From: Treponemataceae bacterium | GTDB lineage: Bacteria; Spirochaetota; Spirochaetia; Treponematales; Rectinemataceae | Reading direction: 5' to 3' | Assembly (NCBI GenBank): GCA_963677895.2 | Contig: CAXXGJ010000017.1 | Coordinates: 64,001-128,000, forward strand | DNA: 64,000 nucleotides | Shown here: positions 15,243-60,774 of the stretch, piece by piece | Numbering within the stretch: the stretch's first letter is position 1 | Layout: every line of letters starts with the position of its first letter | Position numbers and translations under genes: made by a program | The notes under the pieces: model-generated | Told to the model about the DNA's origin: nothing | Database searches by the model: none | The model's input: the letters and a program-made list of their open reading frames with translations, nothing else

Positions 15243-15260
15243 TAGTAACAATTGCTACAT
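15243..15260. promoter_or_regulatory. Crp/Fnr-family (NtcA-like) binding site 2
   Basis: TAGTAACAATTGCTACAT, 15/18 identical to site 1; followed by TATACT at 15297. Confidence 0.7.
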
Positions 15261-15356
15261 TGAAACGGATGATATTTCCTTTAAAAAAAATGGCCCTATA
15301 CTAAAAATCCAGGAATCTTTCGGATACTCGTTAAAACCTCTAAATTCGGGGAGTCT

Positions 15357-18060: not shown

Positions 18061-18071
18061 CAGGAGATATC

Positions 18072-18971: not shown

Positions 18972-18987
18972 ACGGAGATGAAAAAAT

Positions 18988-19986: not shown

Positions 19987-20962
19987 TATCCTTGAAGTAA
20001 GGAGGTTAAAAAAATACTTCCCTACTCCGAAAGGACTTTTACATGCGGTGGATGACCTTTCTTTTAATATTAAGGAAGGTGAAACCCTCGGTGTCGTAGG
20101 AGAGTCCGGATGTGGCAAATCTACTTTAGGAAGAGTTATATTAAGGCTGCATGAAGCCACGGATGGGGAAGTTTTGTTCGATGGCGATAATATCTTAAAA
20201 TATTCAAAAAACAGAATGAAAAATCTCAGAAAAAAGATGCAGATTATTTTCCAGGATCCTTATGCATCATTAAACCCACGCCTGACTGTAAGTCAGGCTA
20301 TCGAAGCCCCTTTGCTCATACAAAACGTTTTCAAGCCTACGCAGAAGTCAGATTTGCAAAAAAGGGTTTTTGAAATAATGGATCTTGTCGGGCTGGCCAG
20401 AAGGTTGGTAAACACTTATCCACATGAACTTGATGGAGGAAGACGGCAGAGAATAGGTATCGCGCGGGCACTTGTTCTAAATCCAAAATTCATTGTTTGC
20501 GATGAGCCAGTTTCAGCTTTGGATGTATCCATACGTGCGCAGATATTGAATTTGATGCAGGACCTCCAAGAACAACTTGGGTTGACATATCTTTTCATCA
20601 CCCATGACTTGAGCGTAGTTAAGCATCTATCCAGCAATATTCTGGTTATGTACCTAGGACAGATCGTAGAAATGGCGAAGCCTGATGATTTATTCAAAAC
20701 ACCAATCCATCCATATACACAAGCGTTATTGTCCGCGATTCCCATTCCTGACCCAGATATCAAGATGAAGCGAATGATACTCCAGGGAGAGCTGACATCT
20801 CCGATAAACCCCGCTCCTGGCTGCAGGTTCGCTAAGCGATGTATTTATGTGACGGATATTTGTTCAAAAAAAACACCTGTGCTCAGGGAAATATCAGAAA
20901 ATCATCTGGTTTCTTGCCATATCGCGGAAAGATTTGCATTAAAACCCATTATAGATGGGTGA
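19967..20962 (+). CDS. Peptide ABC transporter ATP-binding protein (DppF/OppF-like)
   Basis: GESGCGKST, 'LDGGRRQR', 'CDEPVSALDV', 'HPYTQALL'. Confidence 0.95.
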   Translation: MMIQKNNILEVRRLKKYFPTPKGLLHAVDDLSFNIKEGETLGVVGESGCGKSTLGRVILRLHEATDGEVLFDGDNILKYSKNRMKNLRKKMQIIFQDPYASLNPRLTVSQAIEAPLLIQNVFKPTQKSDLQKRVFEIMDLVGLARRLVNTYPHELDGGRRQRIGIARALVLNPKFIVCDEPVSALDVSIRAQILNLMQDLQEQLGLTYLFITHDLSVVKHLSSNILVMYLGQIVEMAKPDDLFKTPIHPYTQALLSAIPIPDPDIKMKRMILQGELTSPINPAPGCRFAKRCIYVTDICSKKTPVLREISENHLVSCHIAERFALKPIIDG

Positions 20963-20991
20963 GCGAATATTATGTCTTTAGGAGGCAGAAG

Positions 20992-22500
20992 ATGAAAAGA
21001 GTATTTGTTGTAGCTATGGCTGTATGTTTCGTTTTGATGACAGCAGGTGCTACATGGGCGGCTGGGCCGTACAAGGATACAATTGTATTCGCTCAGGGTT
21101 CCGATATAACTTCACTGGATCCACATATCGGGAAACAGTTGCGCGCTTTTGCAGTGACATCAAACATGTTTGAACAGATAGTAAAGTTCGATGAAAACAT
21201 GCAGATCGTTCCGAGTTTAGCAAAAAGCTGGGAAAGAATTTCAAGTACTGAGATACAGTTCAAATTGCGAGAGGATGTAAAATGGCACGATGGCAGCCAG
21301 TTTACCGCCGATGATGTAAAGTTTAGTTACGATAGAATGATCGCAACACCAAACGTAGCAAACAACATTGCCTTCCTTGAATCATCAAAAGTGGTGGACA
21401 AATTCACAATCATATTAAAGACAAAGTATCCTTATGCACCGGTGTTAGCAGCATTAACAACTCCGCCATGCTCTATAGTACCAAAAAAAATAGTTGAGGC
21501 GAATCCGAAAGCATTTGCTCTCAACCCAATTGGTACTGGGCCATACAAATTCGTTGAATGGAAACCGGATGAGTATGTAAAGCTCGAGGCATTTGATGGA
21601 TATTACGGACAGAAAGCCAAAACAAAGTACGTAATGATGAAAGTAGTCCCTGAAAGCACTCAGCGAAGTATACAGCTAGAGACTGGCGAGATTGATGTGG
21701 CTTATGATATTCCCCCGAATGATGTTGTACGAATCCAAAACAGCAAAAAAATGACTTTACTCCAAGGAGAGTCGATGATGGTCTCTGACCTGAACATCAA
21801 CACTCAATCAAAAGGACCTCTTGGAAACAAGTTAGTTCGACAAGCTATAGCTTACGCAATCGATAGAAATTCTATTGTAAAGTATGTGCTTAGTGGAATA
21901 GGTATCCCTGGAACAATTTCAGTACCTCCTGCAGCGTTCGGATACAACGCAAATATTAAAGTACCTACTTATAATCTTGATAAAGCGAAAGCTCTCATGA
22001 AGCAAGCAGGTTATGCGAATGGATTCTCCTGTAGCGTATGGGTTGATGATGATCAGGTATATACTGAAGTCTGCACGGTGCTACAGAATCAACTCTCTGA
22101 AATTGGTATTACCCTTAAAATTGAAGTAATGAAACAGGCGACAAAGCTGAACAGGTTGGTTGAAAAGCAGGATTTCGATATGAATATTTCTTACTTCAAC
22201 AATCTAATAGGAGATGCTGACTACAATCTTTATAGCAATTACCATCCATCTTCCGCGAGTAACAACTCGTATTTCAACAACAAAGAGGTAACTGATCTCA
22301 TCATCAAAAGCCGAGAACAGTTCAAGGATAGCGACCGTAAAGCAATATTTGACAAGATATATAACATTCTGATGGATGAGACTCCAACAGTAGCACTTTA
22401 TTACAATAAGATGTGTGTTGGAATTTCCAATAAAGTTGAAGGATTTACCTTAAACAAAATTGGAGCTCATAAATATGTAAACGTCACAGTTAAAAAGTGA
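20992..22500 (+). CDS. Peptide ABC transporter substrate-binding protein (SBP family 5)
   Basis: Start re-assigned to MKRVFVV after AGGAGG; signal peptide; 'SLDPH', 'KWHDG', 'PIGTGPYKF'. Confidence 0.93.
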   Translation: MKRVFVVAMAVCFVLMTAGATWAAGPYKDTIVFAQGSDITSLDPHIGKQLRAFAVTSNMFEQIVKFDENMQIVPSLAKSWERISSTEIQFKLREDVKWHDGSQFTADDVKFSYDRMIATPNVANNIAFLESSKVVDKFTIILKTKYPYAPVLAALTTPPCSIVPKKIVEANPKAFALNPIGTGPYKFVEWKPDEYVKLEAFDGYYGQKAKTKYVMMKVVPESTQRSIQLETGEIDVAYDIPPNDVVRIQNSKKMTLLQGESMMVSDLNINTQSKGPLGNKLVRQAIAYAIDRNSIVKYVLSGIGIPGTISVPPAAFGYNANIKVPTYNLDKAKALMKQAGYANGFSCSVWVDDDQVYTEVCTVLQNQLSEIGITLKIEVMKQATKLNRLVEKQDFDMNISYFNNLIGDADYNLYSNYHPSSASNNSYFNNKEVTDLIIKSREQFKDSDRKAIFDKIYNILMDETPTVALYYNKMCVGISNKVEGFTLNKIGAHKYVNVTVKK

Positions 22501-40549: not shown

Positions 40550-42130
40550 ATGGAACGATCCGGTCCATTCAAAGGCAGAACGATTGCCGTCGTGAACGAT
40601 CTATCGCTCGATGAACAGCGATATCTCTATAAAAAAACCAGCGAACTGAAAAATCTCGCCCGTTCGGGCGGAGACCTGAGTCCCTTCAAAATCAACGATC
40701 CCAGTTACCAGGCCTACCTCATCTTCATGGAAGACTCGACGAGGACGCGCGAATCATTCCGCAACGCGGCCAAATTCCTCGGGTGCCGCACCAATGTCTT
40801 CGACGCGGCCTCCAGTTCCTTCAACAAGAACGAATCCATGACGGATGCCATAAAAATGCTGTACGGCTATTCGGCCGACTCCTGCTTCATCCTGCGCACG
40901 AAGCTCGAAGGCGCCTGCCGCTGGCTTCAGGGAGCCCTCTCCCGCTACGCGGAGATTTCCGGCGGCCCCCGCCCCGGATTCATCAACGCGGGCGACGGAA
41001 AGCACGAGCACCCCACCCAGGAATTCCTCGACGAATTCTCTTTTCTCGAACAGCTGAACTGGAACGAGGACCACATCCATATCGCCCTCACTGGCGACCT
41101 CTACCATGGACGCACCGTCCACTCCAAGGCCGACGGTTTGAGAATCTTCCGGAACGTCGAGGTCGATCTCGTAGCCCCCGAACTGCTCTCCATGCCCTCC
41201 TACTACATCGAAAGGATGAAAGCCAACGGCTACAAGATCAACTCCTACGAATCCCTGGACGAATACCTGGCTTCGGGCAAGGTGGCGCCTATCTGGTACT
41301 TCACCAGGCTGCAGCTCGAACGCATGGGCGACTCGGTGCTGGAACGCGCGCCCTTCCTCCGGAAAAGCGTGACCTTCCGCAAGGACATGCTGAGCCTCCT
41401 GCCCGACGATGCCCGCTTCTACCACCCTCTGCCCCGCGACCGCCTCAATCCGACCAATCCCACCTTCCTCGACGAGCTTCCGCTCAATCGATGGGACGCG
41501 CAGTCGGCCAACGGTTATTGGACGAGGATCATAGAGATAGGCATGGTCTCGGGCCTTCTCGGCAAGGACTTCGAGGGGGCCTTCGCCATGGAACCGGATA
41601 TCGTGGAAGACTTCATCATCGAGGCTCCCTCCGCCAACCATAGCAAGCCTGAATATAAAGTGGGCATAAAACCGGTGGAGGAAGGCATCGTCATCGACCA
41701 TATCGCTTCGGGAGAACCCATCGAAAAGATATGGAGCAACGTGGAGGCGGTGCGCAAGATCCTCAAGCTCAACGTCCGCTCGAGCCATGGCGTCTACCAC
41801 TCGTTCAAGGGCACTGAAGTCTACAAGGGCATCATCTCCCTGCCGGACATCATCAGCTTCGGGGAAAAGGACCTGAAAAAACTGGCCGCGATAGCGCCCG
41901 GCTGCACGCTCAACCTCATCCGCGATTCGAAGGTGGCGAAAAAATATCGCCTGGCCATGCCGCCCAGGATCTATGGTTTCGAGGAAATTTCCTGCAAGAA
42001 TGAAAACTGCATCTCTAATCCGAAGAACAACGAGGGCGTAACCACGGAGTTCCGGCGGAAGTCGGGTTCCACCTTCGTGTGCCGCTACTGCGAGCGCGAA
42101 CACCCGTTCAGGGAGATCTGGGATATCTAG
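40550..42130 (+). CDS. pyrBI: Fused aspartate carbamoyltransferase catalytic and regulatory chains
   Basis: 'STRTRESF', 'HPTQ', 'HPLP', then PyrI-like 'GIVIDHI' and Zn site 'CKNENC...CRYC'. Confidence 0.93.
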   Translation: MERSGPFKGRTIAVVNDLSLDEQRYLYKKTSELKNLARSGGDLSPFKINDPSYQAYLIFMEDSTRTRESFRNAAKFLGCRTNVFDAASSSFNKNESMTDAIKMLYGYSADSCFILRTKLEGACRWLQGALSRYAEISGGPRPGFINAGDGKHEHPTQEFLDEFSFLEQLNWNEDHIHIALTGDLYHGRTVHSKADGLRIFRNVEVDLVAPELLSMPSYYIERMKANGYKINSYESLDEYLASGKVAPIWYFTRLQLERMGDSVLERAPFLRKSVTFRKDMLSLLPDDARFYHPLPRDRLNPTNPTFLDELPLNRWDAQSANGYWTRIIEIGMVSGLLGKDFEGAFAMEPDIVEDFIIEAPSANHSKPEYKVGIKPVEEGIVIDHIASGEPIEKIWSNVEAVRKILKLNVRSSHGVYHSFKGTEVYKGIISLPDIISFGEKDLKKLAAIAPGCTLNLIRDSKVAKKYRLAMPPRIYGFEEISCKNENCISNPKNNEGVTTEFRRKSGSTFVCRYCEREHPFREIWDI

Positions 42131-47880: not shown

Positions 47881-48867
47881 ATGAAAAAGAGCATCTTCCC
47901 GTTAGTCTTTGCGCTTATATCGGTACTGTTGCTTTCGGGCTGTCCGGCGATTCTGGATTTTGTAGAAGACCTTATCCCCACGACGACGACCACTACGACG
48001 ACCACTACAACGACAACCACCACAACCCCGCCAACAACAACGACCACGACTACTGTACCGACAACGACTACAACGACGACGACGACCACCACCACTACTA
48101 CTACCACCACGACAGTCCCGCCGCCGACGACGACGAGCACGACCACGACAACCACGATAATGTCCTTTGAGGACACGCTCTCCGCCGCTAACGCGGCATC
48201 AGGGTATGACGGCAGGCTTCCCGTAATTTCCGGCGGGATACAACATTACGTAATCCAGAACAAGATTGATAATCCCTTGACCACCAATCAGGCAGTCGCC
48301 TATTACGCCGATACTGGTAATTTCTCTATTACGCAGCAGACTGGTCCCTTAACAACCTTACCGGTGTCTTTTCCGTCGATATTCATCGGCAACAATAACG
48401 GACATGCTACGTCTGGCAGCGCCCTTCCAATGCTTACCAGCGCTATTTCAAGCATTCCAACAGCCTGGACCTGGTCGAACGCGAATGCCCCATTAGCTGA
48501 TTTCGCCGCCACCTACGAACTATGGTTTACGACAGCGTTTAATAACAGCAGCATCCCGGGCCCGGAATATTCGCTGAATATTTGGCTATACAAGCCGGCC
48601 GGCCATTCGCCAGGCGGGTCTCAGTACGGTTTAGTCATGATAAATGGCCTGCAATGGAATATCTGGATCGATCCTTTTTCTATCACCTACGTGGCGCCCG
48701 CAGCAGCGCGAAACGTGAGTTTCGATCTTGTCTCCTTCATCAACGACGCAAAAGGGCGGGGCATGATTTTAAATTCTGACTATCTCCACGACGTCATCGC
48801 GGGCTTCAGGATATGGTCAGGCGGCGCGGGACTGGCGAGCGGCAATTTCAGCGCATTGGTGCGCTAG
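47881..48867 (+). CDS. Lipoprotein with Thr-rich linker and GH12-like domain (catalytic Glu residues apparently absent)
   Basis: Lipobox 'LLLSGC'; ~60-aa Thr/Pro tract; GH12-like motifs 'SFPSIFIG', 'ATYELWF', 'SFDLVSFI', 'YL..V.AGF.IW.GG.GL'. Confidence 0.8.
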   Translation: MKKSIFPLVFALISVLLLSGCPAILDFVEDLIPTTTTTTTTTTTTTTTTPPTTTTTTTVPTTTTTTTTTTTTTTTTTTVPPPTTTSTTTTTTIMSFEDTLSAANAASGYDGRLPVISGGIQHYVIQNKIDNPLTTNQAVAYYADTGNFSITQQTGPLTTLPVSFPSIFIGNNNGHATSGSALPMLTSAISSIPTAWTWSNANAPLADFAATYELWFTTAFNNSSIPGPEYSLNIWLYKPAGHSPGGSQYGLVMINGLQWNIWIDPFSITYVAPAAARNVSFDLVSFINDAKGRGMILNSDYLHDVIAGFRIWSGGAGLASGNFSALVR

Positions 48868-50033
48868 GCAACGCTCTTCACTTTCCTGTTAAGCCCGACA
48901 GCGAGTATCAGCGCGGCGGCGAGCGAAAGAGAAGCGCCCAACGCGAAGGGAACCACGGGTCCGAATATATTCCACAAAAATCCAGCGATCACGCTCGCGG
49001 GCAGAAGCGCGATTCCGACGATCGTGGAATGAAGACCGAGCACGGTGCCCTTCAGTTCCTTGGGCGCGATCTCGGCTATGAAGGCGCGTTCGACACCGGC
49101 CGTCATGGCGGTGAAAACTCCATACAAGGCGAAAGCCGCGACGATAACCGCTTTACCGGTGGCCCAGGCAAAGCTGGCATACACGATCGCGAACGTCACA
49201 TACCCGGCGACCAGCACCCATTTTCTCCCGACGCGATCGGATATCTTGCCAAGCGGTATGGAGAGAAGGGACGAGACGATGTTGTACAGGAAATACAGCA
49301 GCACCACCGTGGCCGAATCGAATCCCATGTTTTTAGCCCGAAGAAGAAGGAAAGTGTTCGACGAATTGCCGAGTGTGAATATGAATACGACAACCAGATA
49401 GAGTTTCAGGCGCGAATCGAGATTCTTGAGACTGCCGAAGACGTTGAGCGGCGCCTTTGACTCGCTTGGTTTGTGGGTCTCCTTGATGAAGATGAACATG
49501 AAGAGGGCAGCGAGCGTCGGGATTGCCGAAAGCAGGAAGATCCGCTTGTACGCGAATTCGCCGTTACCGGTCTTCATGATGAAAAACGCGAGGAGAATGC
49601 CCGCCGCCGACCCTGCCATGTCGAGGGCTTTATGAAGCCCAAACGAGTGCCCCAGCTTTTTCGAATCGCTGCTCTCGCTGACGAGCACGTCGCGAGGCGC
49701 CGTCCTGATGCCTTTTCCGAAGCGATCGATTACCCGCGCGGCGAGCACGCCCACCCAGGAACTGGCGAAAATGAGGGCCAGCTTATATATAAGTCCCGTG
49801 GAATAGCCGAAGAAGGCGATGGGCTTTTTCTTCCGGTACTTATCCGTGGCATAGCCGCTGAATACTTTAAGGAGGCTCGCGAGGCTTTCGGCGATTCCCT
49901 CTATCACGCCGACGAGAGCTGGCGTGGCGCCGAATACCGTCGTCAGATACATGGGAATGAGGGGATAGACCATCTCGGTGCTCAGATCGGCGAAAAAACT
50001 GACAAGCCCAATCAAAATTACGTTGTTCATCAT
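48864..50033 (-). CDS. MFS transporter
   Basis: About 12 TM; 'DRFGKGIRTAPRD', 'GKISDRVGRK'; start re-assigned to MMNNVIL overlapping the upstream stop. Confidence 0.9.
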   Translation of the reverse strand: MMNNVILIGLVSFFADLSTEMVYPLIPMYLTTVFGATPALVGVIEGIAESLASLLKVFSGYATDKYRKKKPIAFFGYSTGLIYKLALIFASSWVGVLAARVIDRFGKGIRTAPRDVLVSESSDSKKLGHSFGLHKALDMAGSAAGILLAFFIMKTGNGEFAYKRIFLLSAIPTLAALFMFIFIKETHKPSESKAPLNVFGSLKNLDSRLKLYLVVVFIFTLGNSSNTFLLLRAKNMGFDSATVVLLYFLYNIVSSLLSIPLGKISDRVGRKWVLVAGYVTFAIVYASFAWATGKAVIVAAFALYGVFTAMTAGVERAFIAEIAPKELKGTVLGLHSTIVGIALLPASVIAGFLWNIFGPVVPFALGASLSLAAALILAVGLNRKVKSVA

Positions 50034-51670
50034 TAGCCCAACCTTTCGGGTACAGTATAGACGATAGGCGATACAGCGCTGATCCTTCCGACGAGGGTCA
50101 GCTTCTTTTCGACCGCGAGAGAAAACGCGGCCGTGGTGGGAATGCTTCGCGAAACCACCAGGGGAATGCCCGCTGCGACAGCCTTGGCCGCCATGTCCGC
50201 GGCGATGCGGCCGGAACTGATGAGGCAGCTTCGCGAAAAATCCACTTTTTCGCGAAGCCCGCGTCCTATGGCCTTGTCGACGGCGTTGTGTCTGCCAACG
50301 TCCTCGAAGGTGAATACTAGTCCATTTTCGGGGACGAGAGCGGCGCAGTGCATACCGCCCGTCGTCTTGTACAGCTTGGCCTGGTCGAACATCTCCCGCG
50401 CCCAATCGCGCAGCGATGCCATGGCGAAGGTCCGTGACGGAGAAAGACGGGCGAGCCTGTCGCCATGAAAAATCGAAGCCGGACTCGCGCCGCAGGCCGA
50501 GGGGACGACGGCAAAGCCGGACTCGTGGGCGATATCATGGACGCATTTGATGTGCACGCGCGAATTGTCGGGACAAACCCACAGACTCAGGACTTCGTCC
50601 ATGGACGCGATGAGCCCGCCGCTGAAAAGGTGGCCCAAGGCGAGAACCTCCAGATCGAAGGGACTGCACATAAGCGTAACGATGTCCTTTCCATTCACCT
50701 CGAGCGTGACGGCACTTTCCGGAGCCAGGAGGCGGTTCCTCGGATCGGGAGGAACATCGTTTTCCCGCGCCATAGCGTCCTCGGATTGACGCGTCTTCTC
50801 GCCATTATGTCTTGAAACTATAGTATTCATGGCCAGGCCGGCGAGGAGAAGGAGCGTACCCAGGAGTTTTTTCCATTCAAGGCTTCCTCCCAGGGCAAAT
50901 TCGATGAGTATGCCGGCGAAAGCCTGGCCCGAAAACACGAGCAGCGTAGCGGAAAAAGCCCTTATCCGGGGGAAGATGAGGTTCATGGAGGTGACGACCA
51001 CCACGCCCATGCAGCCTCCCCCGAGCGCGAGAAAGGGACCCGCGGCCGCGACAGACCGCAGCATGTCAGCGACATCGGGCCTGACCAGGGCTACGATGAG
51101 CGATGTCGTGACGAGACCGACGACATAATTGGCGCGCGTGCTTCGCAGGACGCCCTTCTTTCGGCCCAGCTCGGAGTTCAACGCGAAGGAGAGCGCGGGG
51201 AAAGCGCCGGCCGCGAGGGCCGCGGCCATGGCGGAAACATCGGCGCGCCAATGGCCGCCCGACATCACGGCCACGCCAGCCACCGCCAGGAGAAGACTTG
51301 GCGCGCTTCGGAGGCTCAAGGGGTATTTCTTCCTGCCCAGGAGCCCTGTGGCGTCGATGAGGACCGAGAACAATGTCTGGCCGAGAAGCGCGAGCGATAC
51401 GGTCAGCGAGGCGCCGAGTATGCCGAAAGCGTAGTTGTTGGAAAAAACCGTTCCGACGCCTATAAATCCGCCGAGGTAGTAATAAAACGGCAGCCTGCCC
51501 GGTTGGCGCGCTTCCCGTTTCAGCAACAGCGCGACCGATACAGCGACGAGTCCCGCCAGATGAATGAAGAGCACGGCGGCAAGGCTGCCGGCGATCGCGG
51601 AAAAACGGCTGTTCAGGCCGTTCATCAACGTTATGAGAGCGCCGACGAGAGGCGCTAACGCGCTGTACAT
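50033..51670 (-). CDS. Fusion ORF: double DMT (YdcZ/DUF606-like) transporter plus FdhD-like sulfurtransferase
   Basis: aa 1-285 hydrophobic with two YdcZ-like repeats ('NGLNSRF', 'GQ..FS.LID..GL.G'); aa 300-545 FdhD motifs 'TGGMHCAA', 'EDVGRHNAVDK', 'SGR', 'SIPT'. Confidence 0.8.
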   Translation of the reverse strand: MYSALAPLVGALITLMNGLNSRFSAIAGSLAAVLFIHLAGLVAVSVALLLKREARQPGRLPFYYYLGGFIGVGTVFSNNYAFGILGASLTVSLALLGQTLFSVLIDATGLLGRKKYPLSLRSAPSLLLAVAGVAVMSGGHWRADVSAMAAALAAGAFPALSFALNSELGRKKGVLRSTRANYVVGLVTTSLIVALVRPDVADMLRSVAAAGPFLALGGGCMGVVVVTSMNLIFPRIRAFSATLLVFSGQAFAGILIEFALGGSLEWKKLLGTLLLLAGLAMNTIVSRHNGEKTRQSEDAMARENDVPPDPRNRLLAPESAVTLEVNGKDIVTLMCSPFDLEVLALGHLFSGGLIASMDEVLSLWVCPDNSRVHIKCVHDIAHESGFAVVPSACGASPASIFHGDRLARLSPSRTFAMASLRDWAREMFDQAKLYKTTGGMHCAALVPENGLVFTFEDVGRHNAVDKAIGRGLREKVDFSRSCLISSGRIAADMAAKAVAAGIPLVVSRSIPTTAAFSLAVEKKLTLVGRISAVSPIVYTVPERLG

Positions 51671-51704: not shown

Positions 51705-53012
51705 TCAGCGTTCGCGGATGAGGAGGTCCTCGTATGTTTCGCGGCGCACGGAAAGGCGATGCGAACCGTCCCTGGTCATGACGACGGCGGGACGGGGAAT
51801 GCGATTGTAGTTAGAGGCCATGGAGTGGTTGTATGCGCCCGTGGAGAAAACGGCGAGGATGTCGCCCGGTTCTGGATCGGGCAGATCGATGTCGCGTATG
51901 AGGATATCCCCCGTTTCGCAGCACTTGCCCACCACCGTCACCGTGGTACAGCTCGCCCCAACCCGATCCGCCTTATTGGCGCAGAGAGCATGGTATTTAG
52001 CCTCGTAGAGAGCCGGGCGGATGTTGTCGGCCATGCCCCCGTCGACGCCAACGTAGGTGCGTATGCCGGGTATCGTCTTGACGGAACGGAGGGTATACAA
52101 CGTGATGCCCGCTTCGCCGATGATCCAGCGGCCCGGTTCGATCGTCACCCTAGGCATGGGGATCCCCGTTTCCTCGGCGGCGCCGCGCACCAGTTCCATC
52201 ATGGGATCGATGAAGTAGCCGAGGCTCAGCTCGGGATCGCCAGGGAGATAGCGGATGCCGAAGCCTCCGCCGAGGTTGAGCTCGGAGGTCGCATAACCAT
52301 AGCCGGTCTTTACGTCGGCCATGAGTTTCAGCGCTATCCGCAGCGCCGCGAGGTGGGAAAAGTTGTCGTGTAGCTGGGATCCTATATGGAAATGAAATCC
52401 CCTGAAATCGATGTGCGGCGCGTCCAGCACGGCGCGCATATAGAGGTCGCGCAACGACGGGTCGAGAGGAATCCCGAATTTGGAATCCAGGCTCCCGGTG
52501 GAAATGAAGCGGTGCGTATGGCTGTCGACGCCCGGCGTGATCCTGTAGAGCACCCGGATTTTTTTGCCGTAGAGCTCCCCCAGCCTTTCGATTTCTTCGA
52601 TTTCGAAGAGGTTGTCGGATACTATGCGCCCGACATTGGAGCGAATGGCGTAATCGAGTTCGTCGGCCGCCTTGGCGTTGCCGTGAAAAATTATGGTCTC
52701 CGGGTCTATGCCGGCCTTGAGCGCCGCGTAGAGTTCGCCGCCGGAGACGACGTCGAGCCCTAAGCCTTCGTCGGCGACGATCCTGCACATGTCGAGGGTC
52801 TGGAAGGCCTTGCTCGCGTACACCGCCGAGGTATTGGGATACTTTTCCAGAAAAGCCGATCTGATGAGGCCGCAGCGCTCCCTCACCATGGATTCGGAAA
52901 CGACATAGAGGGGAGTACCGTAATGAGCGGCCAGTTCCGTGGCGTCGACGCCATCGAAATAAAGCTTGCTTCCGCAGATTTCCGCGCGGGAATTGAATCC
53001 TGATATGCTCAT
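51705..53012 (-). CDS. lysA: Diaminopimelate decarboxylase
   Basis: 'YASKA' (PLP Lys), 'HFHIGSQ', 'EPGR', 'CCETGD', 'GAY..SMASNYN'; alternative GTG start at 53027. Confidence 0.93.
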   Translation of the reverse strand: MSISGFNSRAEICGSKLYFDGVDATELAAHYGTPLYVVSESMVRERCGLIRSAFLEKYPNTSAVYASKAFQTLDMCRIVADEGLGLDVVSGGELYAALKAGIDPETIIFHGNAKAADELDYAIRSNVGRIVSDNLFEIEEIERLGELYGKKIRVLYRITPGVDSHTHRFISTGSLDSKFGIPLDPSLRDLYMRAVLDAPHIDFRGFHFHIGSQLHDNFSHLAALRIALKLMADVKTGYGYATSELNLGGGFGIRYLPGDPELSLGYFIDPMMELVRGAAEETGIPMPRVTIEPGRWIIGEAGITLYTLRSVKTIPGIRTYVGVDGGMADNIRPALYEAKYHALCANKADRVGASCTTVTVVGKCCETGDILIRDIDLPDPEPGDILAVFSTGAYNHSMASNYNRIPRPAVVMTRDGSHRLSVRRETYEDLLIRER

Positions 53013-53137
53013 AATGGCATTGTACACGATCCTCAGGCGAAGATTAAGAGTGCCGAAATGTTTTCAATATGGAAAATCCGGCGGCCAGCGGGTATACTTC
53101 GCCCAATATCGCCGACGGCGACGCTTTTATCTAGGGG

Positions 53138-53860
53138 ATGACCATGAAACCACGCATCGGACTCACCACCTTCATCGATCCGCAGGCGCGGGCGAATTAT
53201 GTTTCGCTCAGCGAACACTATACCCGTTCGGTCAGGGACTCGGGCGGCATTCCCTTTCCCATTCCGCTCGTCGAGGACCCGAGTATGGCGGAAGATTATG
53301 TCTCGAACATCAATGGCCTCCTTCTGACGGGAGGCAAGGATATCGATCCCGTTTATTATGGCCAGGATCCCCTTGTCGGGATCGGTCCTTTCGGCGCGGG
53401 ACGCGACGCGTGGGAGATGGCGCTGTTCGCCGCGGCGGCCAGGAAAGCCTTGCCTATTTTCGGAATCTGCAGAGGATGTCAGCTCATCAACGTGGCGATG
53501 GGAGGAACGCTTTTTCAGGATCTGAAAACGCAACGGCCGGGCACGAATGCCCATAGTCCGGAGGATTTCCCCGTGGACAGGCTTTACCATTCCGTCGAAC
53601 TCAAGGAAGGATCGATGCTTCATTGCACCTTCGGAAAAACTTCCCTGCGGGTGAACAGCTTTCATCATCAGGCCGTCAGGGATCTGGCGCCGGGACTGAA
53701 AGCCTCGGCTTTTGCCGCCGACGGCGTCCTGGAAGGTTTCGAGGCGGCGGACGCTTCGCGCTTTCTCGTAGCAGTGCAGTTCCATCCGGAAAGCCTCACG
53801 CTGAGATTTCCGGAATTCCTCGCTCTTTTCAGGGCTTTCGTGGAAGCTGCAGGAGGCTGA
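53138..53860 (+). CDS. Peptidase C26 / gamma-glutamyl amide hydrolase (PuuD-like)
   Basis: 'LLLTGG.DIDP', nucleophile 'GICRG', 'VNSFHHQ', 'VQFHPE'. Confidence 0.9.
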   Translation: MTMKPRIGLTTFIDPQARANYVSLSEHYTRSVRDSGGIPFPIPLVEDPSMAEDYVSNINGLLLTGGKDIDPVYYGQDPLVGIGPFGAGRDAWEMALFAAAARKALPIFGICRGCQLINVAMGGTLFQDLKTQRPGTNAHSPEDFPVDRLYHSVELKEGSMLHCTFGKTSLRVNSFHHQAVRDLAPGLKASAFAADGVLEGFEAADASRFLVAVQFHPESLTLRFPEFLALFRAFVEAAGG

Positions 53861-53946
53861 GGACGGGCTCCGGAGGGTTCTCTGGAAGTTCCAGGAGGCT
53901 GAGGAAGGCCTCCGGAGAGTTCTCTGGAAGTTCCCGGAGGCTGAGG
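53841..53946. repeat. 42-bp tandem repeat, 2.5 copies, starting inside the 3' end of the C26 gene
   Basis: TGGAAGCTGCAGGAGGCTGAGGACGGGCTCCGGAGGGTTCTC / TGGAAGTTCCAGGAGGCTGAGGAAGGCCTCCGGAGAGTTCTC / TGGAAGTTCCCGGAGGCTGAGG. Confidence 0.85.
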
Positions 53947-54003
53947 GCCGGCAAGAGGGCGCCTAGAGGCGCAATTTCCGGAAAAAGGGCGTCCATACAA
54001 TTT

Positions 54004-55083
54004 TCAACCGGCGAAGGGCGACTCCAGCAGTTCAAGGCTGCGCGCATCGGTGTTCATCCTGTAACGGAGACCGAGCGGCAGGGTCAGGGTCGGGGCGCAG
54101 TGCCCCGCCTCGATGCCCGCGAGAACGGGCTTTCCGCAGGGCAGGATCAGGTCGCGAAGGATTTCCTCGATCGTCAGCGAACGTTTGCCCTCGGCGGGGG
54201 CGCAGCGGGTCCAGGCGCCGATCGCGACGCCCGCGCAGTCTTCGAATTTACCCGCCAGGCGCAGCTGGTTCAGCATCCTGTCGATACGGTAGGGCGCCTC
54301 GTCGACATCCTCGATGAATATGATTTTTCCCCGCGCGTCGAGCTCCCAGGGCGTACCGATGGTGGCCGCGATGAGGGAAAGATTGCCTCCCGTGAGTTCG
54401 CCTTCGGCGATTCCGCCCGAAAGGGTATGAAAAGGACGGCCAGAGGGGTTTGTGAGGCGGAGGATCGGGGATGCGGTGGCGGTGGCGGTGGCGGTGGCGG
54501 CAACGGAGGCCGGGGCGGCTGCCGCTGGGGTGGCAATCGAGGCCAGGCCGGCGGTTTCTGGAAGCCCAAAAAGCGCTGCTTCCAGGGAAGCCCTCGAAGC
54601 CGGATCGAACTCGGGGACCATGTCGGAGGAAGGCATGGGGCCATGGAAGGTGACAAGACCAGCCAATTGGCGAAACGCGGTGTGGAGGGCGGTTATGTCG
54701 CTGTAGCCCAGAAAAACCTTGGGATGGGCGGCGATGATCGAGTAGTCGATGAGATCGAGAATGCGCGGCGTTCCATAGCCGCCTTTGAGGCAGATCACGG
54801 CGCTGGTACCCGGATCGAGAAAGGCGAGTTCCAGCTCGCGAGCCCGGGTCGCGTCTTCTCCGGCGAGGTAGCCATAGGCGTCGGCGCAATGGGGCGAAGC
54901 CTTAACCTTGAAGCCGAGGTCTGAAAGGGCCCGTATGGAGGCTTCGACCCGGTCGGGGCCGCTGGCTGAGCCCGAGGGGGCTATGAGGGAAACTGTGTCG
55001 CCTCGGAGCAGCCGGCGCGGCTTGAGGCGCCGCGGAGCGGGCACGGGCCGGCAGGAAGCCGCGCCGGCGGCAGCGGCCTTCAC
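54004..55083 (-). CDS. ldcA: LD-carboxypeptidase (peptidase S66, muramoyltetrapeptide carboxypeptidase-like)
   Basis: Triad motifs 'GYSDIT', 'IEDVDE', 'AGH'; 'GGNLS'; GTG start in a GTGA overlap with the upstream stop. Confidence 0.9.
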   Translation of the reverse strand: MKAAAAGAASCRPVPAPRRLKPRRLLRGDTVSLIAPSGSASGPDRVEASIRALSDLGFKVKASPHCADAYGYLAGEDATRARELELAFLDPGTSAVICLKGGYGTPRILDLIDYSIIAAHPKVFLGYSDITALHTAFRQLAGLVTFHGPMPSSDMVPEFDPASRASLEAALFGLPETAGLASIATPAAAAPASVAATATATATASPILRLTNPSGRPFHTLSGGIAEGELTGGNLSLIAATIGTPWELDARGKIIFIEDVDEAPYRIDRMLNQLRLAGKFEDCAGVAIGAWTRCAPAEGKRSLTIEEILRDLILPCGKPVLAGIEAGHCAPTLTLPLGLRYRMNTDARSLELLESPFAG

Positions 55084-56267
55084 GAACGCTTTCCGAGCAG
55101 CCTGGAGACCAGGCCCGCCTGCATGGCGACGCCGATAGGCAGGCAGTCTTCGTCTATATCGAAGGCATTGGAATGCAGAGCCGCCGTAATCCCCTTCCGG
55201 GGGTTGCCGCAACCGAGATGGTAGAAAGAGCCTGGCTTTTCCTGGACGAAGAAGGAAAAATCCTCGACGCCCATGCTCGCCTTATCGCGCCAGATTATAG
55301 AATCAGGACCCAGCAGATCCTTCGCCTCCTCGGCGATGAGATCCACCACCCAATCGTGGTTGATGAGCGCCGCATAGCCCGCGACGATTTCGACTTCACC
55401 GGATCCCCCGAAGGCGACAGGCAGGTTGGCGACGATGGCCCTCACCCTCTCCGCGATTTCCGCTCTTACCTGAGGATTCGTCGTTCTTATGGTGCCCGTC
55501 ATCCTCACCTCGTCGGCGATGATGTTGTTGCGGGTGCCTCCCTGGATGGTTCCGAGCGTAAGCACGGCTTCCTGGAGGGGAGAGACGTAGCGGGAAACCA
55601 CCGAATGGAGCGCGTCCACTACCTTGGCCGCTATCATGATGGCGTCGATGCCCGTGCTGGGATAGGCGGCATGAGCTCCCTTGCCCCGTATGGTGACGCC
55701 GAGAAAATCGGAGGAGCCATTGAGGGCCCCATGCTTCAGCTCGACCTTTCCCGTCGGCACATCCGGCATGACATGGAGCCCTATGACAAAATCGACATGG
55801 GGATTCTCGAGACAGCCGTCGGCGATCATCTTCGCCGCCCCGCCCGTCGTCTCTTCTGCGGGCTGGAAAAGAAACTTGACCGATCCCTCCAGCTTGTTCC
55901 GATGCTCCATCCAGTATTTCGCCGTGCCCAAAGCGATCGTCATATGGGCGTCGTGGCCGCAAGCGTGCATGTAACCCTTGTGGAGGGACGCATAGACGCG
56001 ATCGGCGGATTCATTCACCGGCAAGGCATCCATGTCCGCCCTCACGCCGACCACTTTGCCGGATTTTTTTCCCTCGACGAGCGCCACGATGGAGGTTCGC
56101 CTTTTTTCGTAGGGGACACCAAGTTCTTCCAGGATGCCGCAGACCGCTTCCTGCGTCTCGAACTCGGCGTCGCCGGCTTCAGGTATCCGGTGGAGAGTCC
56201 TACGCGTCTGGACGAGCCAGTCCTTCATCGTTTTCATTGCTTCCAGCAATTCCTTACCTGTCGACAT
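55080..56267 (-). CDS. M20D amidohydrolase (N-acyl-amino acid / N-acetyl-DAP deacetylase-like)
   Basis: 'RADMDAL', 'MHACGHDAH', 'FQPAEE', 'EDF'; start after AAGGAG. Confidence 0.88.
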   Translation of the reverse strand: MSTGKELLEAMKTMKDWLVQTRRTLHRIPEAGDAEFETQEAVCGILEELGVPYEKRRTSIVALVEGKKSGKVVGVRADMDALPVNESADRVYASLHKGYMHACGHDAHMTIALGTAKYWMEHRNKLEGSVKFLFQPAEETTGGAAKMIADGCLENPHVDFVIGLHVMPDVPTGKVELKHGALNGSSDFLGVTIRGKGAHAAYPSTGIDAIMIAAKVVDALHSVVSRYVSPLQEAVLTLGTIQGGTRNNIIADEVRMTGTIRTTNPQVRAEIAERVRAIVANLPVAFGGSGEVEIVAGYAALINHDWVVDLIAEEAKDLLGPDSIIWRDKASMGVEDFSFFVQEKPGSFYHLGCGNPRKGITAALHSNAFDIDEDCLPIGVAMQAGLVSRLLGKRS

Positions 56268-56307
56268 TCCAGACTCCTTAAGTTTTACCGGCGCGCGGAC
56301 CAGCGGA

Positions 56308-57504
56308 CTAGAACCGCCGCAGCGTCGATCCCGAGAGACGATTATCCAGAGCGACAACCTTCCCGCTTCGCGTATACAAGCGCGGGACCCTTCTTCCGAT
56401 ACCGCACAGCAGCTCGTTCCTGTTGGTGGATCCCCATTCGGAAGCTTCGTTCAGGCTTATGGCCCCTCCTCCCAGAAGGATCACTTCATCGCCTTCGGCA
56501 ACGCCATCGACAGCTCCCACGTCCACCATAGTCTGGTCCATGCAGACCAGGCCAACTACCATCGCCCTCTTCCCCCTGATGAAGACCTGAGCCTTGTTGC
56601 CGAAGCGCCGGGGATAGCCGTCGGCGTACCCGACTGGAAGCGTGGCCACAAGCGTGCCTCCCTTCGGAGCCTGCCATGAATCGTCGTAGGAAACCATTTC
56701 GCCCTCTTCCAGCCGCCTGATTCTCGCGATCCGCGTGACGAAAGTTCCCGCCGGGGGGAATGGGTACGCATCGTATTCAGCCCCCATTCTCGAAGGCCTG
56801 ACGCCGAAAAACGCCGCCCCTACCCTGACCATGTCGAGCCTGAATTCGGGGTACCGGACGGCGCCTATGCTATCGCAGACATGGCGCTGCCCGGTTGGAA
56901 TGCCCTTCGCGGCACAGCCGGCCAAAATTTCATTATAGGCCGCGAATTGAGCCATATCCGATTCCCGATCGCGAAGCGCGAGATGAGTAAAAATCCCACG
57001 CAGATCCAGTCCCGGCATTCCCGCGATAGTCCCGATTATTCCGACGGTATCCTCGTAAGGCTTCATGCCCAGCCGGTTCATCCCTGTATCCAGCTTGATA
57101 TGGACGGGAAGAACCGCGCCTGCCTTGACCGCCGCGTCGGAAAAAGCCCCGGCGTTCTTCGCGTCAAACAAGGTGGGCATAATTCGATGCTCGACGGCAA
57201 GGCCGGCAAATTCCTCTGGTGTATGCCCCATGACGAGGAGATCGGCATCGGGAAAGGCCATCCGCAGCTCGAGGGCTTCGGAAATCGTGGCGACGGCGAG
57301 CAGGTCGGCGCCGGCCGCCAGCAGCGTCCCGCCGATCATCACGGCGCCGTGCCCGTAGGCGTCTGCCTTGATGACGGCGGCGATCTTCACCGTATCTCCT
57401 ACGATAGTCTTCATATCCCGGAAATTGGATTCCACGACATCGAGATCGATGGAATAATAGGTCTGTCGGCCCAGACTTCTCAGGATATCGCCGCCGGGCT
57501 TCAT
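56308..57504 (-). CDS. Alanine-racemase-family PLP racemase, second and divergent copy
   Basis: 'VIKADAYGHG', 'DTGMNRLG', 'VSY', 'GYADG', 'CMDQ'; C-terminal TNRNE in place of TIxYE; start at the TAATG overlap with dapF. Confidence 0.88.
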   Translation of the reverse strand: MKPGGDILRSLGRQTYYSIDLDVVESNFRDMKTIVGDTVKIAAVIKADAYGHGAVMIGGTLLAAGADLLAVATISEALELRMAFPDADLLVMGHTPEEFAGLAVEHRIMPTLFDAKNAGAFSDAAVKAGAVLPVHIKLDTGMNRLGMKPYEDTVGIIGTIAGMPGLDLRGIFTHLALRDRESDMAQFAAYNEILAGCAAKGIPTGQRHVCDSIGAVRYPEFRLDMVRVGAAFFGVRPSRMGAEYDAYPFPPAGTFVTRIARIRRLEEGEMVSYDDSWQAPKGGTLVATLPVGYADGYPRRFGNKAQVFIRGKRAMVVGLVCMDQTMVDVGAVDGVAEGDEVILLGGGAISLNEASEWGSTNRNELLCGIGRRVPRLYTRSGKVVALDNRLSGSTLRRF

Positions 57505-58442
57505 TATTTCCCGCCCGCCAGACGGGGATTCCCGCCCCCGAGGGCGCCAAAATTCTTCAGGCTCAGTATCATCGCCTCCGAGAACCGCCCTTCGTAAATA
57601 CAGAGCGCGGGACCCGTCATCAGCACCGATGGGCGGGAAAGATCGAGCGAAAGAATCCCGCCGGGCATATGCACCCGGACGAGCCCCTCGACCAATCCCA
57701 GCTTTTTGGCGACGCTCGCCGCGGCGCAGGAGGAAGAGCCGCTCGCCAGCGTATAGCCCGCCCCCCTCTCCCATATCTCTATCCGCAGGTTGTGCCTGTC
57801 CATCACTGTCGCGAACTGCACATTGGTCCGCTCGGGAAAGAGCCGATGATTCTCGACGAGGGGACCCAGGCGTTTCGCCAGCTCAGGCGTCGGGTTTTCG
57901 GCAAAAATGACGCAGTGTGGATTGCCCATGGAGACGAAGGTCGCGGAAACGCTTTCGGTTCCCAGATCCAGCTTCCCCTGGACGAATTCCGGAAAATCGG
58001 TCGCGAGTCCGGCGGCGGATGCCGAAAAAGAAGGCTCGCCCATATCCACCTTTATGCGAGGCGGATCGAGGCTTTCGACCTTAGCCAGAACCCTGCCGCC
58101 TTTCGTGCCCACGGGAAATTCCTCGCCGTTCACGTAGCCTTGTTCCGCGAGGAATAGGCAGAAAATCCTCAGCCCATTGCCGCTCTTTTCGGCTTCGGAA
58201 CCATCCGGATTGAAGATCCTGACCCATGGAGTCGCGGCGAGGCCGAGGAGGCCGGCGGGCATGCCCGCGAGATCGTTTTCGGAGGCGAGAGGTCCCAGCA
58301 GTATGCCGTCGGAACCGGCGCCCATGTTCCTGTCGCAGATCGCCCGCACGGCGTCGGCCACGGGCACGAAGGGAAATTCCCTTGGGTCGATGACGATATA
58401 ATCGTTGCCCAGGGCATGGTATTTCCTGAACTCAGCCGACAT
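57504..58442 (-). CDS. dapF: Diaminopimelate-epimerase-family protein with Ser/Ser at the catalytic positions
   Basis: 'KYHALGNDY', 'GSDG', 'FNPDGSEAEKSGNG', 'SMGNPHCV', 'FPERTNV', 'WERGAGYTLASGSS'. Confidence 0.85.
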   Translation of the reverse strand: MSAEFRKYHALGNDYIVIDPREFPFVPVADAVRAICDRNMGAGSDGILLGPLASENDLAGMPAGLLGLAATPWVRIFNPDGSEAEKSGNGLRIFCLFLAEQGYVNGEEFPVGTKGGRVLAKVESLDPPRIKVDMGEPSFSASAAGLATDFPEFVQGKLDLGTESVSATFVSMGNPHCVIFAENPTPELAKRLGPLVENHRLFPERTNVQFATVMDRHNLRIEIWERGAGYTLASGSSSCAAASVAKKLGLVEGLVRVHMPGGILSLDLSRPSVLMTGPALCIYEGRFSEAMILSLKNFGALGGGNPRLAGGK

Positions 58443-59553
58443 CGGCTCCTCCCTTCGCGATCCTGGGCACGCGCTTCGAGATGCCGCAGGTCACTTCATA
58501 ATCGATGGTGCCCATAAGGCCGGCGAGTTCTCCGGCGGGCAATTCGGGAAGACCGAAAAGAGTGACCTCATCGTCAAGCATGGCTTCGGGGATATCCGTT
58601 ATGTCTATCATCACCTGATCCATGCAGATTCGACCCGCGATGGGTGCCTTCCTTCCCCTTACGATCACGCTGCCTTTATTCGAGAGGAGACGGGAATAGC
58701 CGTCGGCGTAACCGATCTGCAAAAGAGCGATGCGCGAATCCCGCCGCGCGGTGAAGAGCCTGCCGTAGCTGACGCTTTCTCCTTTTTTCAGCAGGCGGAT
58801 ATTGGCTATGGACGCGCAGAGCTGCATGACTGGGAGGAATCCCTCAGGCGGATTCGGATTCGCGTCGGGGGAAAGGCCGTAGAAGAGTATGCCGGGACGA
58901 ACCATATCGAATCGCGCTTCGGGGATATGGAGAAGAGCGGCGCTGTTGGAAATATGCCGTATGGGGGGGCAGACGCCGGCCGCCTTCATGCTTTCGACAG
59001 CGCGCCGGAATTCGGCGAGCTGACGATAGGTGAAGGAAGTGTCGGGATTGTCGGCGTCCGCGAAATGGGAGTAGACGCCTTCAATATATAATCCTTCCAT
59101 GGACGCGAGCGAACGGGAAAAGGATTCCGCGTCATCGGGGGAAATGCCCTGGCGATGCATGCCCGTATCGATCTTGACGTGGATTTTGGCCGGATGATTC
59201 AGGCGGCGCGCGGACTTGGCGAGCGCGAGCGCGAGTTCCATAGTGTACACGGTCTGCGTAATATTCTGCGATACTACAATATCGGCGTTTGAGGGATCGG
59301 TGGTGCCGAGAACGAGGAGGGGCGAGGCGATGCCGGCCGAGCGAAGCTCCAGGGCTTCTTCCAGAAGGGCTACCGCGAGATAATCGATTCCCTCGCGGTC
59401 GAGGGTGCGCGATACGGCGATGGCGTCATGGCCGTAAGCGTCGGCCTTGACGACGGCGCAGACTTTTGCCTGGCCGGCAAGGATTCGAATTTTACGCAGG
59501 TTGTTGACGAGATTGTCGGTGTGAATATAAGCGGCGGCTTTTCTGTTCATCAT
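58432..59553 (-). CDS. alr: Alanine racemase
   Basis: 'VVKADAYGH', 'DTGMHRQG', 'RPGILFYG', 'VSYG', 'GYADG', 'CMDQ', 'TIDYE'. Confidence 0.93.
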   Translation of the reverse strand: MMNRKAAAYIHTDNLVNNLRKIRILAGQAKVCAVVKADAYGHDAIAVSRTLDREGIDYLAVALLEEALELRSAGIASPLLVLGTTDPSNADIVVSQNITQTVYTMELALALAKSARRLNHPAKIHVKIDTGMHRQGISPDDAESFSRSLASMEGLYIEGVYSHFADADNPDTSFTYRQLAEFRRAVESMKAAGVCPPIRHISNSAALLHIPEARFDMVRPGILFYGLSPDANPNPPEGFLPVMQLCASIANIRLLKKGESVSYGRLFTARRDSRIALLQIGYADGYSRLLSNKGSVIVRGRKAPIAGRICMDQVMIDITDIPEAMLDDEVTLFGLPELPAGELAGLMGTIDYEVTCGISKRVPRIAKGGADVG

Positions 59554-59559
59554 ATAGTA

Positions 59560-60774
59560 TCAGCCTTTCTCCTGATCTTGGCGTTTCGGTTGCGTTGTTT
59601 GATTTGCTCGGCTCGATGAGCTCGGTCCGCTGCAGGCGGTCAGCGTCTTGTCCCAGATGAAAAGCTCGGCTTTCGCCCCCACCTCTATGCTTCCCCCCTG
59701 CCCGCCGGCCGTGAAGCCGAGGGCGGCGCCGGGCGTGCGACTCATGGAGGCAAGCGCAGGGGCGAGGGAAAGACCAGTGGCCTCCATGAAGGATTTCACT
59801 ATCTGCATGCCTAATTTATTGGATCCGATAAGCGTGCCCGTTTCGCTGTAGCGCACACCGTTCAGGCTGGAGGAAACGGACTTCCCGAAATAGCGGTATT
59901 CGCCGTACTCCAGGCCGGCGGATACCACGGCGTCGCTTGTGAGGATGAGGCGTTCCGAGGGGATGCATCGCGAGGCTGCCTTCATGCTGCTGTCGTTCAC
60001 GTGGATACCGTCGGCGTTGAGTTCGGTCCACGCGGGGATGCCCGCGAGGGCTATGTTGACGAGGCCGCCGCCGCCACTTCGGTGGTCCAGCCCGCTCATC
60101 GCGTTGAAGAGATGGGTCACGGAAAAGGGCGGCGGCGGCAAGGCGACTCCGGCGCTCGCGCCCGAGTGCCCCAGCGAAACAAGGACACCATTCTCTCTCA
60201 GTATCGGATAGAGCGACTCGATGCCCGGCAATTCCGGCGCGAGCGCCATTATCCTGAGCCTGCCCCTGGCCGTCTCGATGATTTTCCTGCACAAGTCAGC
60301 GTCCGGAGCCTCTATCTGCGGCAGGTTTATCCCTCCGCGATGCTTCGGGTCGATGAAGGGACCTTCGATATATATTCCCGGAATAACCTCGGGGGGCAAC
60401 CGCGAAGCCTCGATGGCATCCACGAGCCTTCCCACGGCCCCCTCATCCCAGAGGATGGTGGGAACAAAACACCCCACTCCCCTCTTTTCCAGTTTCCTCG
60501 CGACCTCTAGGATATCCTCGGCGCCCCCGACGCTTTCAAAGCCTATGCCGAAGGCTCCATGGATATGCATTTCCACAAGCCGCGGCGCTACGAAAGAGCC
60601 GCCGCAATCGACGACGGCCAAATCGCGGTCTTCAGGGTTGGATAACAAGTATTCTTCAAGGCTTTCTTCGCCGACATGACGGATCCTTCCCTCCCTGACG
60701 ACGAGGATTCCCCCTTCGAGAAGCCGGTCGGGCAGGACGAATGTGCCTCCCGAGAGGATTTGATTGTCAGCCAT
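59560..60774 (-). CDS. nagA: N-acetylglucosamine-6-phosphate deacetylase-like amidohydrolase
   Basis: 'MHIHG', 'IEGPFI', 'LGHS', 'THLFNAM', 'ADGIHV', 'TSDA'; start uncertain (60774 or 60843). Confidence 0.8.
   Translation of the reverse strand: MADNQILSGGTFVLPDRLLEGGILVVREGRIRHVGEESLEEYLLSNPEDRDLAVVDCGGSFVAPRLVEMHIHGAFGIGFESVGGAEDILEVARKLEKRGVGCFVPTILWDEGAVGRLVDAIEASRLPPEVIPGIYIEGPFIDPKHRGGINLPQIEAPDADLCRKIIETARGRLRIMALAPELPGIESLYPILRENGVLVSLGHSGASAGVALPPPPFSVTHLFNAMSGLDHRSGGGGLVNIALAGIPAWTELNADGIHVNDSSMKAASRCIPSERLILTSDAVVSAGLEYGEYRYFGKSVSSSLNGVRYSETGTLIGSNKLGMQIVKSFMEATGLSLAPALASMSRTPGAALGFTAGGQGGSIEVGAKAELFIWDKTLTACSGPSSSSRANQTTQPKRQDQEKG

Follow-up and report, generated by a model that had tools for sequence, protein, structure and literature searches.

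Why does a spirochaete keep its DAP (diaminopimelate) epimerase and decarboxylase and both of its alanine racemase-type genes among peptidases, apart from its other lysine genes? The question is raised by eight adjacent genes (a nagA-like gene, alr1, a dapF-like gene, alr2, an M20D amidohydrolase gene, ldcA, a peptidase C26 gene and lysA) in a 64,000-nucleotide stretch of a Treponemataceae bacterium genome, referred to here as the window. The cluster is rather likely to be a cytoplasmic module that digests the stem peptides of peptidoglycan, mostly of the DAP type and left by other (dead) bacteria, and to serve in this lineage also as the last part of lysine synthesis. It is from genes, families, residues, linkage and co-occurrence that we infer what each enzyme acts on and that the peptides come from other organisms.

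In the proposed route, an Opp transporter would import L-Ala-gamma-D-Glu-DAP-D-Ala(-D-Ala), LdcA would take off the D-residue at position 4 and the D-aminopeptidase DppA would split D-Ala-D-Ala. The C26 enzyme would cleave the gamma-glutamyl bond and M20D, joined in some genomes by an M19 dipeptidase, the Ala-Glu bond; the order of the cuts is a suggestion. Alr1 would recycle D-Ala, Alr2 would invert a larger D-centre, a DapF with a serine pair in place of its catalytic cysteines would convert LL-DAP to meso-DAP, and LysA would convert DAP to lysine. The bonds in the stem peptide have their counterparts in the gene set. MurQ, AnmK and NagZ, present in the genome, would supply the sugar arm, and MurI is present as well. 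In the window genome MpaA gave no hit and no YcjG orthologue was found (only a 24% hit in another subfamily context, beside a TRAP transporter), which leaves C26, M20D/M19 and Alr2 as candidate replacements. Two NlpC/P60 genes lie elsewhere in the genome, unlinked to the cluster.

All eight genes were found in the window sequence, and family calls were made against NCBIfam and Pfam model cut-offs (Table 1). The six-gene minus-strand run reported by the first-pass annotation was confirmed together with each junction: 6 nt between the nagA-like gene and alr1, an 11-nt overlap of alr1 with the dapF-like gene, TAATG between the latter and alr2, 40 nt between alr2 and M20D, and GTGA between M20D and ldcA. 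C26 and lysA do adjoin this run as described, but C26 is a plus-strand gene: it converges on ldcA, with 143 nt from stop to stop, and diverges from lysA. Thus lysA stands outside the coupled run, and the eight genes make up three or more units. A gene-neighbourhood analysis, which the annotation had proposed, showed that the gene order is conserved across the family and that the module recurs in clostridia-like contigs; since the order recurs across a family, the cluster is not a chance arrangement. Among named relatives that share this gene order, the closest is a Rectinemataceae bacterium (L047), whose Alr2 is 83% identical. The catalytic domains begin near the N-termini and so leave little room for a signal peptide (a crude hydrophobicity test for signal peptides failed its positive control), and a promoter and terminator scan gave results at chance level. 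The 42-bp repeat listed in Table 1 overlaps the C26 stop codon and is possibly a small duplication or a REP-like element.

Table 1. Positions of the cluster genes and of the adjoining repeat in the window, with model scores against cut-offs.
Feature	Position	Strand	Support
lysA, diaminopimelate decarboxylase	51705-53027	minus	TIGR01048 431 bits vs cut-off 298
Peptidase C26 gamma-glutamyl hydrolase	53138-53860	plus	PF07722 E 8e-64, above Pfam cut-off
42-bp repeat between the convergent C26 and ldcA ends	53850-53952		Two full copies (93%) and part of a third
ldcA, S66 L,D-carboxypeptidase (LdcA-like), Ala/Thr-rich linker	54004-55083	minus	PF02016 and PF17676 above Pfam cut-offs
M20D amidohydrolase	55080-56267	minus	TIGR01891 351 vs 154
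alr2, pyridoxal phosphate (PLP) racemase	56308-57504	minus	Above NCBIfam cut-off; distinct clade
dapF-like, DapF-fold epimerase	57504-58442	minus	TIGR00652 216 vs 115
alr1, canonical alanine racemase	58432-59553	minus	TIGR00492 378 vs 168
NagA-like amidohydrolase	59560-60774 (open reading frame could extend to 60843)	minus	TIGR00221 155 vs cut-off 226, below

The distribution of the cluster was surveyed in 54 family genomes that were at least 85% complete; 36 regions around DapF hits were taken, and more around other cluster members. Cluster-type DapF was present in 32 of the 54 genomes (one 34% hit of another type was dropped). Alr2 was found in 20 genomes, all within the 21 that have an LdcA orthologue (one 27% S66 hit was dropped and one contig-edge fragment added), and the sole LdcA genome outside the 20 has an Alr2 remnant. 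DapF is next door to Alr2 in 16 of these 20. DppA lies inside the cluster in 9 relatives, the Opp binding protein adjoins it in 9, and an M19 dipeptidase stands beside lysA, C26 or M20 in several; the DppA and Opp orthologues of the window genome are on other contigs (57% and 68%). In two relatives (G014 and G044) a single same-strand run reads opp-dppA-ldcA-lysA-M19, with no DapF hit in either genome. Both have another decarboxylase next to the dapB region; in G014 the last gene of the dap operon encodes a decarboxylase of its own. This placement of lysA, together with a dapF-lysA pair beside the module in a clostridial locus described below, would tie DAP decarboxylation to peptide uptake. 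In a further relative (G019, 99% complete), where DapF is missing, the order is nagA-alr1-alr2-M20-dppA-ldcA, followed by C26 and lysA. The idea that dapF-M20-lysA forms an invariant core was overturned by G014, G044 and G019 and by two more genomes, G012 and G072.

Module loci were also found outside the family, in a sample of 80 metagenome loci and in 8 loci taken from 301 sampled genomes, 22 of them with hits, of the class to which a Tissierellales genome belongs. The Alr2 signature was present in 4 of the 80 and 4 of the 8. Module genes (C26, M20, LdcA, DppA, Opp or LysA) lay near alr2 in seven of these eight signature loci, and at 0/77 and 2/76 other alr loci used as controls. The arrangements were gamma-glutamyltranspeptidase (GGT)-RpiR-C26-alr2-opp-M20 in L213; dppA-M20 / alr2-Gate-Gate-ldcA; lysA, D-Ala-D-Ala dipeptidase-alr2, dppA; C26-alr2-serine hydrolase-opp; alr2-M20; RpiR-alr2-oppB; and, in a clostridia-class locus, sigma54-dapF-lysA facing alr2-M20, a D-Ala-D-Ala dipeptidase and Gate-Gate-ldcA. 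Among the four remaining clostridial loci, M19 and C26 are present at one, a variant that falls within the clade. The nagA-like gene is absent from module loci outside the family. The clostridial module DapF is Cys/Cys and only 29% identical to the cluster DapF; the DAP arm may thus have been acquired on two occasions. As a separate observation, two Gate-domain (SpmA/SpmB-like) membrane genes directly precede ldcA at L216:9162-10327 and L296:13957-15218, where no Opp was seen; they are a candidate muropeptide importer.

Judged by its residues, Alr2 is a racemase with a remodelled substrate entry. Asn363 occupies the Tyr354 gate position, accompanied by Asp211, Asp274 and Leu319, and the catalytic Lys46 and Tyr273 are retained. 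In all 22 Alr2 rows the gate Asn is flanked by Asn and Arg, two positions have Asp, and Leu or Ile replaces Arg309. The structure model (predicted local distance difference test score, pLDDT, 88.7) has the alanine-racemase fold (template modelling score, TM, 0.89). In a quick tree without a VanT or BsrV outgroup, Alr2-type sequences separate from canonical Alr (Shimodaira-Hasegawa-like approximate likelihood ratio test, SH-aLRT, 100), and on the strength of this separate clade an ordinary second alanine racemase was rejected. Alr2 also falls below the VanT model cut-off (269 vs 460). Among the best 150 profile hits the gate Asn was found in 38 and the full triple signature in 28; named carriers of Alr2-type sequences include Romboutsia, Paraclostridium, Fusibacter and Dethiosulfatibacter. 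An ESM Atlas search with Alr2 returned generic alanine racemase clusters only, and plasmid searches listed only distant racemases, all below 60% identity, with no DapF2 among the 45 of 459 matches listed. Fusions of LdcA with Alr2 (P0139) and of Alr2 with DapF were each met in one sequence. On these comparisons Alr2 is a distinct subfamily of PLP racemases, now annotated simply as "alanine racemase." VanT, BsrV, Lyr and Bar gain a broader specificity from the loss of Tyr354 (PMC4542195, PMC3485190). Three candidate substrates for Alr2 are given equal and rather low chances: D-Glu (free or in gamma-D-Glu-DAP), DAP, and non-canonical D-amino acids of position 4.

The cluster DapF, the only DapF in the genome, has Ser87 and Ser234 in place of catalytic Cys73 and Cys217 when aligned to E. 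coli DapF. The pair is Ser/Ser in all 31 fully aligned cluster orthologues; five non-cluster DapFs are Cys/Cys. Active serine-pair DAP epimerases, "DapF-SS," were reportedly described by Lamer, Vederas and colleagues in about 2025. According to PMC12039745, which does not mention a serine-pair DapF, Cys-to-Ser changes impair canonical enzymes. DAP epimerase activity of the Ser/Ser enzyme is likely. In three other genera (g6, g7 and g10; loci L152, L157, L163, L164 and L198), dap operons carry dapD together with either one or two LysA-like decarboxylases, and DapL is often there as well. DapF above the cut-off was found in 0 of 12 genomes there, an epimerase gap that is perhaps filled by an LL-DAP-using decarboxylase or a so far unrecognized epimerase.

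The C26 residues Cys111, His216 and Glu218 are invariant in 16/16 aligned orthologues, its nearest structures are Lin1909, SpuA-type proteins and PuuD, and it is proposed to free DAP from the gamma-glutamyl bond. The LdcA-like protein has the S66 family assignment and catalytic triad and is under the PRK11253 cut-off (161 vs 378); its best structure match is the muramoyltetrapeptide carboxypeptidase 6uuk, and MccF-like S66 proteins match too. In M20D the metal ligands and Arg261 are invariant in 17/17 aligned orthologues, and the enzyme is a candidate dipeptidase/carboxypeptidase as well as a candidate alternative DapE. Alr1 retains Tyr354 and Arg309 and is probably the housekeeping source of D-Ala. 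The "atypical racemases" of the first-pass annotation apply to Alr2, with its gate residues, and to the Ser/Ser DapF, but not to Alr1 with its canonical motifs. The best structures for the NagA-like protein are GlcNAc-6-P deacetylases (E 4e-34), and nagA and alr1 look like housekeeping neighbours.

The window genome (93% complete, 5.5% contaminated) carries asd-lysC-dapB-dapA-dapD as a single operon on contig C18, each gene above its NCBIfam cut-off (DapB marginally, 122.3 vs 122). DapD matches the succinyl type. No DapE orthologue was found in the genome (best hits 23-27%, at most 26.5%), nor were DapL and Ddh, and the DapH model was far below its cut-off. The acetylase, DapL and Ddh routes were therefore rejected, as was lysine auxotrophy as a driver in this genome. 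With DapA, DapB and DapD present and DapE, DapL and Ddh not found, M20D-DapF-LysA probably also complete the succinylase route of lysine synthesis, for which ArgD of the arg operon could supply the transaminase. The cluster LysA is the sole protein of the genome above the TIGR01048 cut-off (a second fold-III decarboxylase on contig C21 scores 158), and the only two Alr genes, like the only DapF, are in the cluster; hence lysine synthesis, if present, needs the cluster. MurE was hit in 54/54 family genomes and has Asp in place of the Asn of the DNPR motif in 30/30 loci read, the same as in the Lys-adding Thermotoga enzyme. This Asn marks DAP-adding MurE, the motif alone being no proof of specificity (PMC3829189). 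ddl adjoins murE in 30/30 loci and an ornithine aminotransferase falls within the short loci in 14/30. The wall is probably not of the DAP type, as far as the motif can tell. The linkage of murE, ddl and ornithine aminotransferase at L017:13945-18109 (G000 C38), with consecutive locus tags in Rectinema cohabitans, is a possible marker of an ornithine wall.

These results bear on several statements of the first-pass annotation. dapA, dapB, dapD and Mur ligases are indeed missing from the 51 window open reading frames scanned, and all are present elsewhere in the genome. Its alternative, that M20-DapF-LysA is the end of the acetylase lysine pathway, is likely correct as to lysine and wrong as to type, which is succinylase. 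Of the full DAP pathway and DAP-type wall that were to speak against scavenging, the genome has the front end from asd to dapD, together with a MurE lacking the DAP-type Asn. The scavenging proposal itself has gained comparative support from the DppA, Opp and M19 linkage, from MurE and from the clostridia-like loci, and is tempered by the de novo dap front end.

The cluster could be nothing more than the final part of de novo lysine synthesis, with M20D as succinyl-DAP desuccinylase, DapF and/or a DapF2-like Alr2 as epimerase, LysA as decarboxylase, and ldcA, C26, nagA and alr1 incidental. The succinyl-type DapD of a genome in which DapE, DapL and Ddh were not found agrees with this, and the M20 orthologue (38/54) and DapL (10/54) coincide in one genome only. 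An M20D alternative DapE and an Alr-fold DapF2 beside an amidohydrolase have been published (PMC13759103). However, the split between M20 and DapL tracks genera, M20/C26/Alr2/Opp loci exist without any dap gene (L213, L216 and L293), and G042 and G006 keep the cluster although their dap operons have their own decarboxylase. DppA, Opp, M19, the Alr2-LdcA co-occurrence and the fusion would also be left unexplained, and we consider this explanation distinctly unlikely. Recycling of the cell's own ornithine- or lysine-type wall, with DapF and LysA added solely for lysine synthesis, is unlikely to a lesser degree. Genes for the recycling of anhydro-sugars (AnmK, MurQ and NagZ) are present in the genome; LdcA, DppA and C26 would act on any diamino acid; and the cluster is expressed in R. 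cohabitans without added walls. Against this stand the lysA of the G014/G044 opp-dppA-ldcA operon, the dapF-lysA pair beside the clostridia-class module, and an LdcA orthologue that is missing in 33/54 family genomes, all of which have MurE. A general catabolic kit for D-amino-acid or gamma-glutamyl peptides (non-ribosomal peptides, poly-gamma-glutamate fragments or glutamylated amines) would account for the gamma-glutamyltranspeptidase upstream in L213, the beta-lactamase-fold serine hydrolases adjoining Opp genes and the several D-peptidases of a variant locus (L297). It is very improbable, as LdcA, D-Ala-D-Ala dipeptidases, DapF and LysA jointly fit the stem peptide specifically.

Several observations weigh against stem-peptide scavenging itself. 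The relatives are not independent and many control contigs are short. dapB is present in 48/54 family genomes and in 28 of the 32 that carry the cluster DapF; the four with the cluster and no dapB hit, which would speak for scavenging, are all fragmented (280-690 contigs). Three of the 20 Alr2 genomes yielded no C26. Genera g17 and g20 have nagA-alr1-dapF-M20-(C26)-lysA without an Alr2 or LdcA orthologue, an arrangement that looks biosynthetic. The P0139 fusion is a single sequence, S66 also includes MccF, and the C26 relatives with known function (PuuD/SpuA) cut gamma-L-glutamyl amides. R. cohabitans ferments the necromass of a neighbour, a habit that fits scavenging, but it expressed a trimmed cluster on glucose plus yeast extract (PMC6052044). 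Its tandem mass spectrometry counts were NagA 35, Alr 34, DapF 67, amidohydrolase 47, C26 18 and LysA 92 for the cluster, and DapD 5, DapA 51, DapB 11, LysC 6 and Asd 18 for the dap front end (PMC6052044). None of the cluster proteins is in the necromass co-culture list, which holds mostly abundant periplasmic proteins, and peptidoglycan is not mentioned in the main text (PMC6052044). These data are compatible with induction by walls as well as with its absence.

Stem-peptide scavenging could be extended, speculatively and with considerable doubt, to a third route of stem-peptide destruction common to anaerobic spirochaetes and clostridia. Alr2 would invert D-glutamate (free or gamma-linked to DAP) after trimming by LdcA and M20D, C26 would replace MpaA/YkfC, and the serine-pair DapF with LysA would turn any DAP isomer of dead neighbours into lysine. 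In sediments, digesters and guts, peptidoglycan peptides account for much of the D-amino acid pool, and they are also a major component of bacterial necromass. The enzymes by which anaerobes consume them are poorly mapped; the module names testable candidates. It points to a possible role of C26 hydrolases in relation to the wall, sets apart a racemase subfamily hidden under the "alanine racemase" annotation, and hints at the way in which the final steps of lysine synthesis can pass to a scavenging operon.

Other features of the window were noted. A low-GC segment at about 13000-22500 (0.38-0.43 vs 0.57) with an M20 dipeptidase, a Crp-type regulator, an M28 peptidase and oppBCDF-binding protein genes is a probable acquired peptide-uptake island. 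One open reading frame at 50033-51670 fuses a YdcZ-type DMT transporter and FdhD; the two parts match separately in L047, so the fusion may be local. A lipoprotein-like GH12 glycoside hydrolase with a long threonine linker lies at 47881-48867, and aspartate carbamoyltransferase catalytic and regulatory chains share one open reading frame at 40550-42130. Outside the window, contigs C35, C39 and C30 of G000 (GC 0.68, 0.33 and 0.42 vs 0.56 for the genome) are possible contaminating contigs.

Bacillus subtilis carries out stem-peptide catabolism with dppABCDE-ykfABCD, of which dpp forms one part. The module is like that system in that S66 LdcA-type and M55 DppA-type enzymes share a neighbourhood with a peptide ABC transporter (ykf part, PMC3305447); Opp and DppA are linked in relatives, and in the window genome they are present but unlinked. 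Unlike dpp-ykf, it lacks the YkfB epimerase and an adjacent YkfC, has C26, M20D/M19 and an Alr-fold racemase instead, and has a DAP-to-lysine arm attached. No gamma-D-Glu-DAP amidase of the MpaA (M14) or YkfC (NlpC/P60) family is linked to the cluster, where C26 is found instead, and the enolase-family L-Ala-D/L-Glu epimerase is represented in the window genome only by the 24% hit. The E. coli mppA/mpaA/ycjG/ldcA degradation of the tripeptide has the same proposed substrate and products, but of its enzymes MpaA was not found and YcjG only at that level. The staphylococcal amidohydrolase-DapF2(Alr2)-lysA arrangement likewise places an Alr-fold epimerase candidate beside M20D and lysA (PMC13759103, PMC9026213). 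By description, DapF2 occurs inside the dap operon of genomes without dapF, whereas here the dap operon is elsewhere and Alr2 occurs where dapF is missing in only 4 of 20 genomes. As with the Bacteroidota alternative DapE Echvi_1427 (PMC13759103), M20D accompanies DapD without DapE and keeps the carboxylate-binding Arg (Arg261); a difference is that the cluster M20D is found at some loci where dap genes are absent. Alr2 shares the lost Tyr354 gate with VanT, BsrV and Lyr/Bar, with Asn as in VanT (PMC4542195, PMC3485190), and differs from them in having no membrane domain and no evident signal peptide and in its extra invariant Asp/Asp/Arg-Lys changes. No description of the module was found in the literature searched, which left most subscription journals outside its coverage. 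On these comparisons the module would work like known stem-peptide catabolism, yet it departs from it in two defining enzymes, whose place different enzyme families appear to take.

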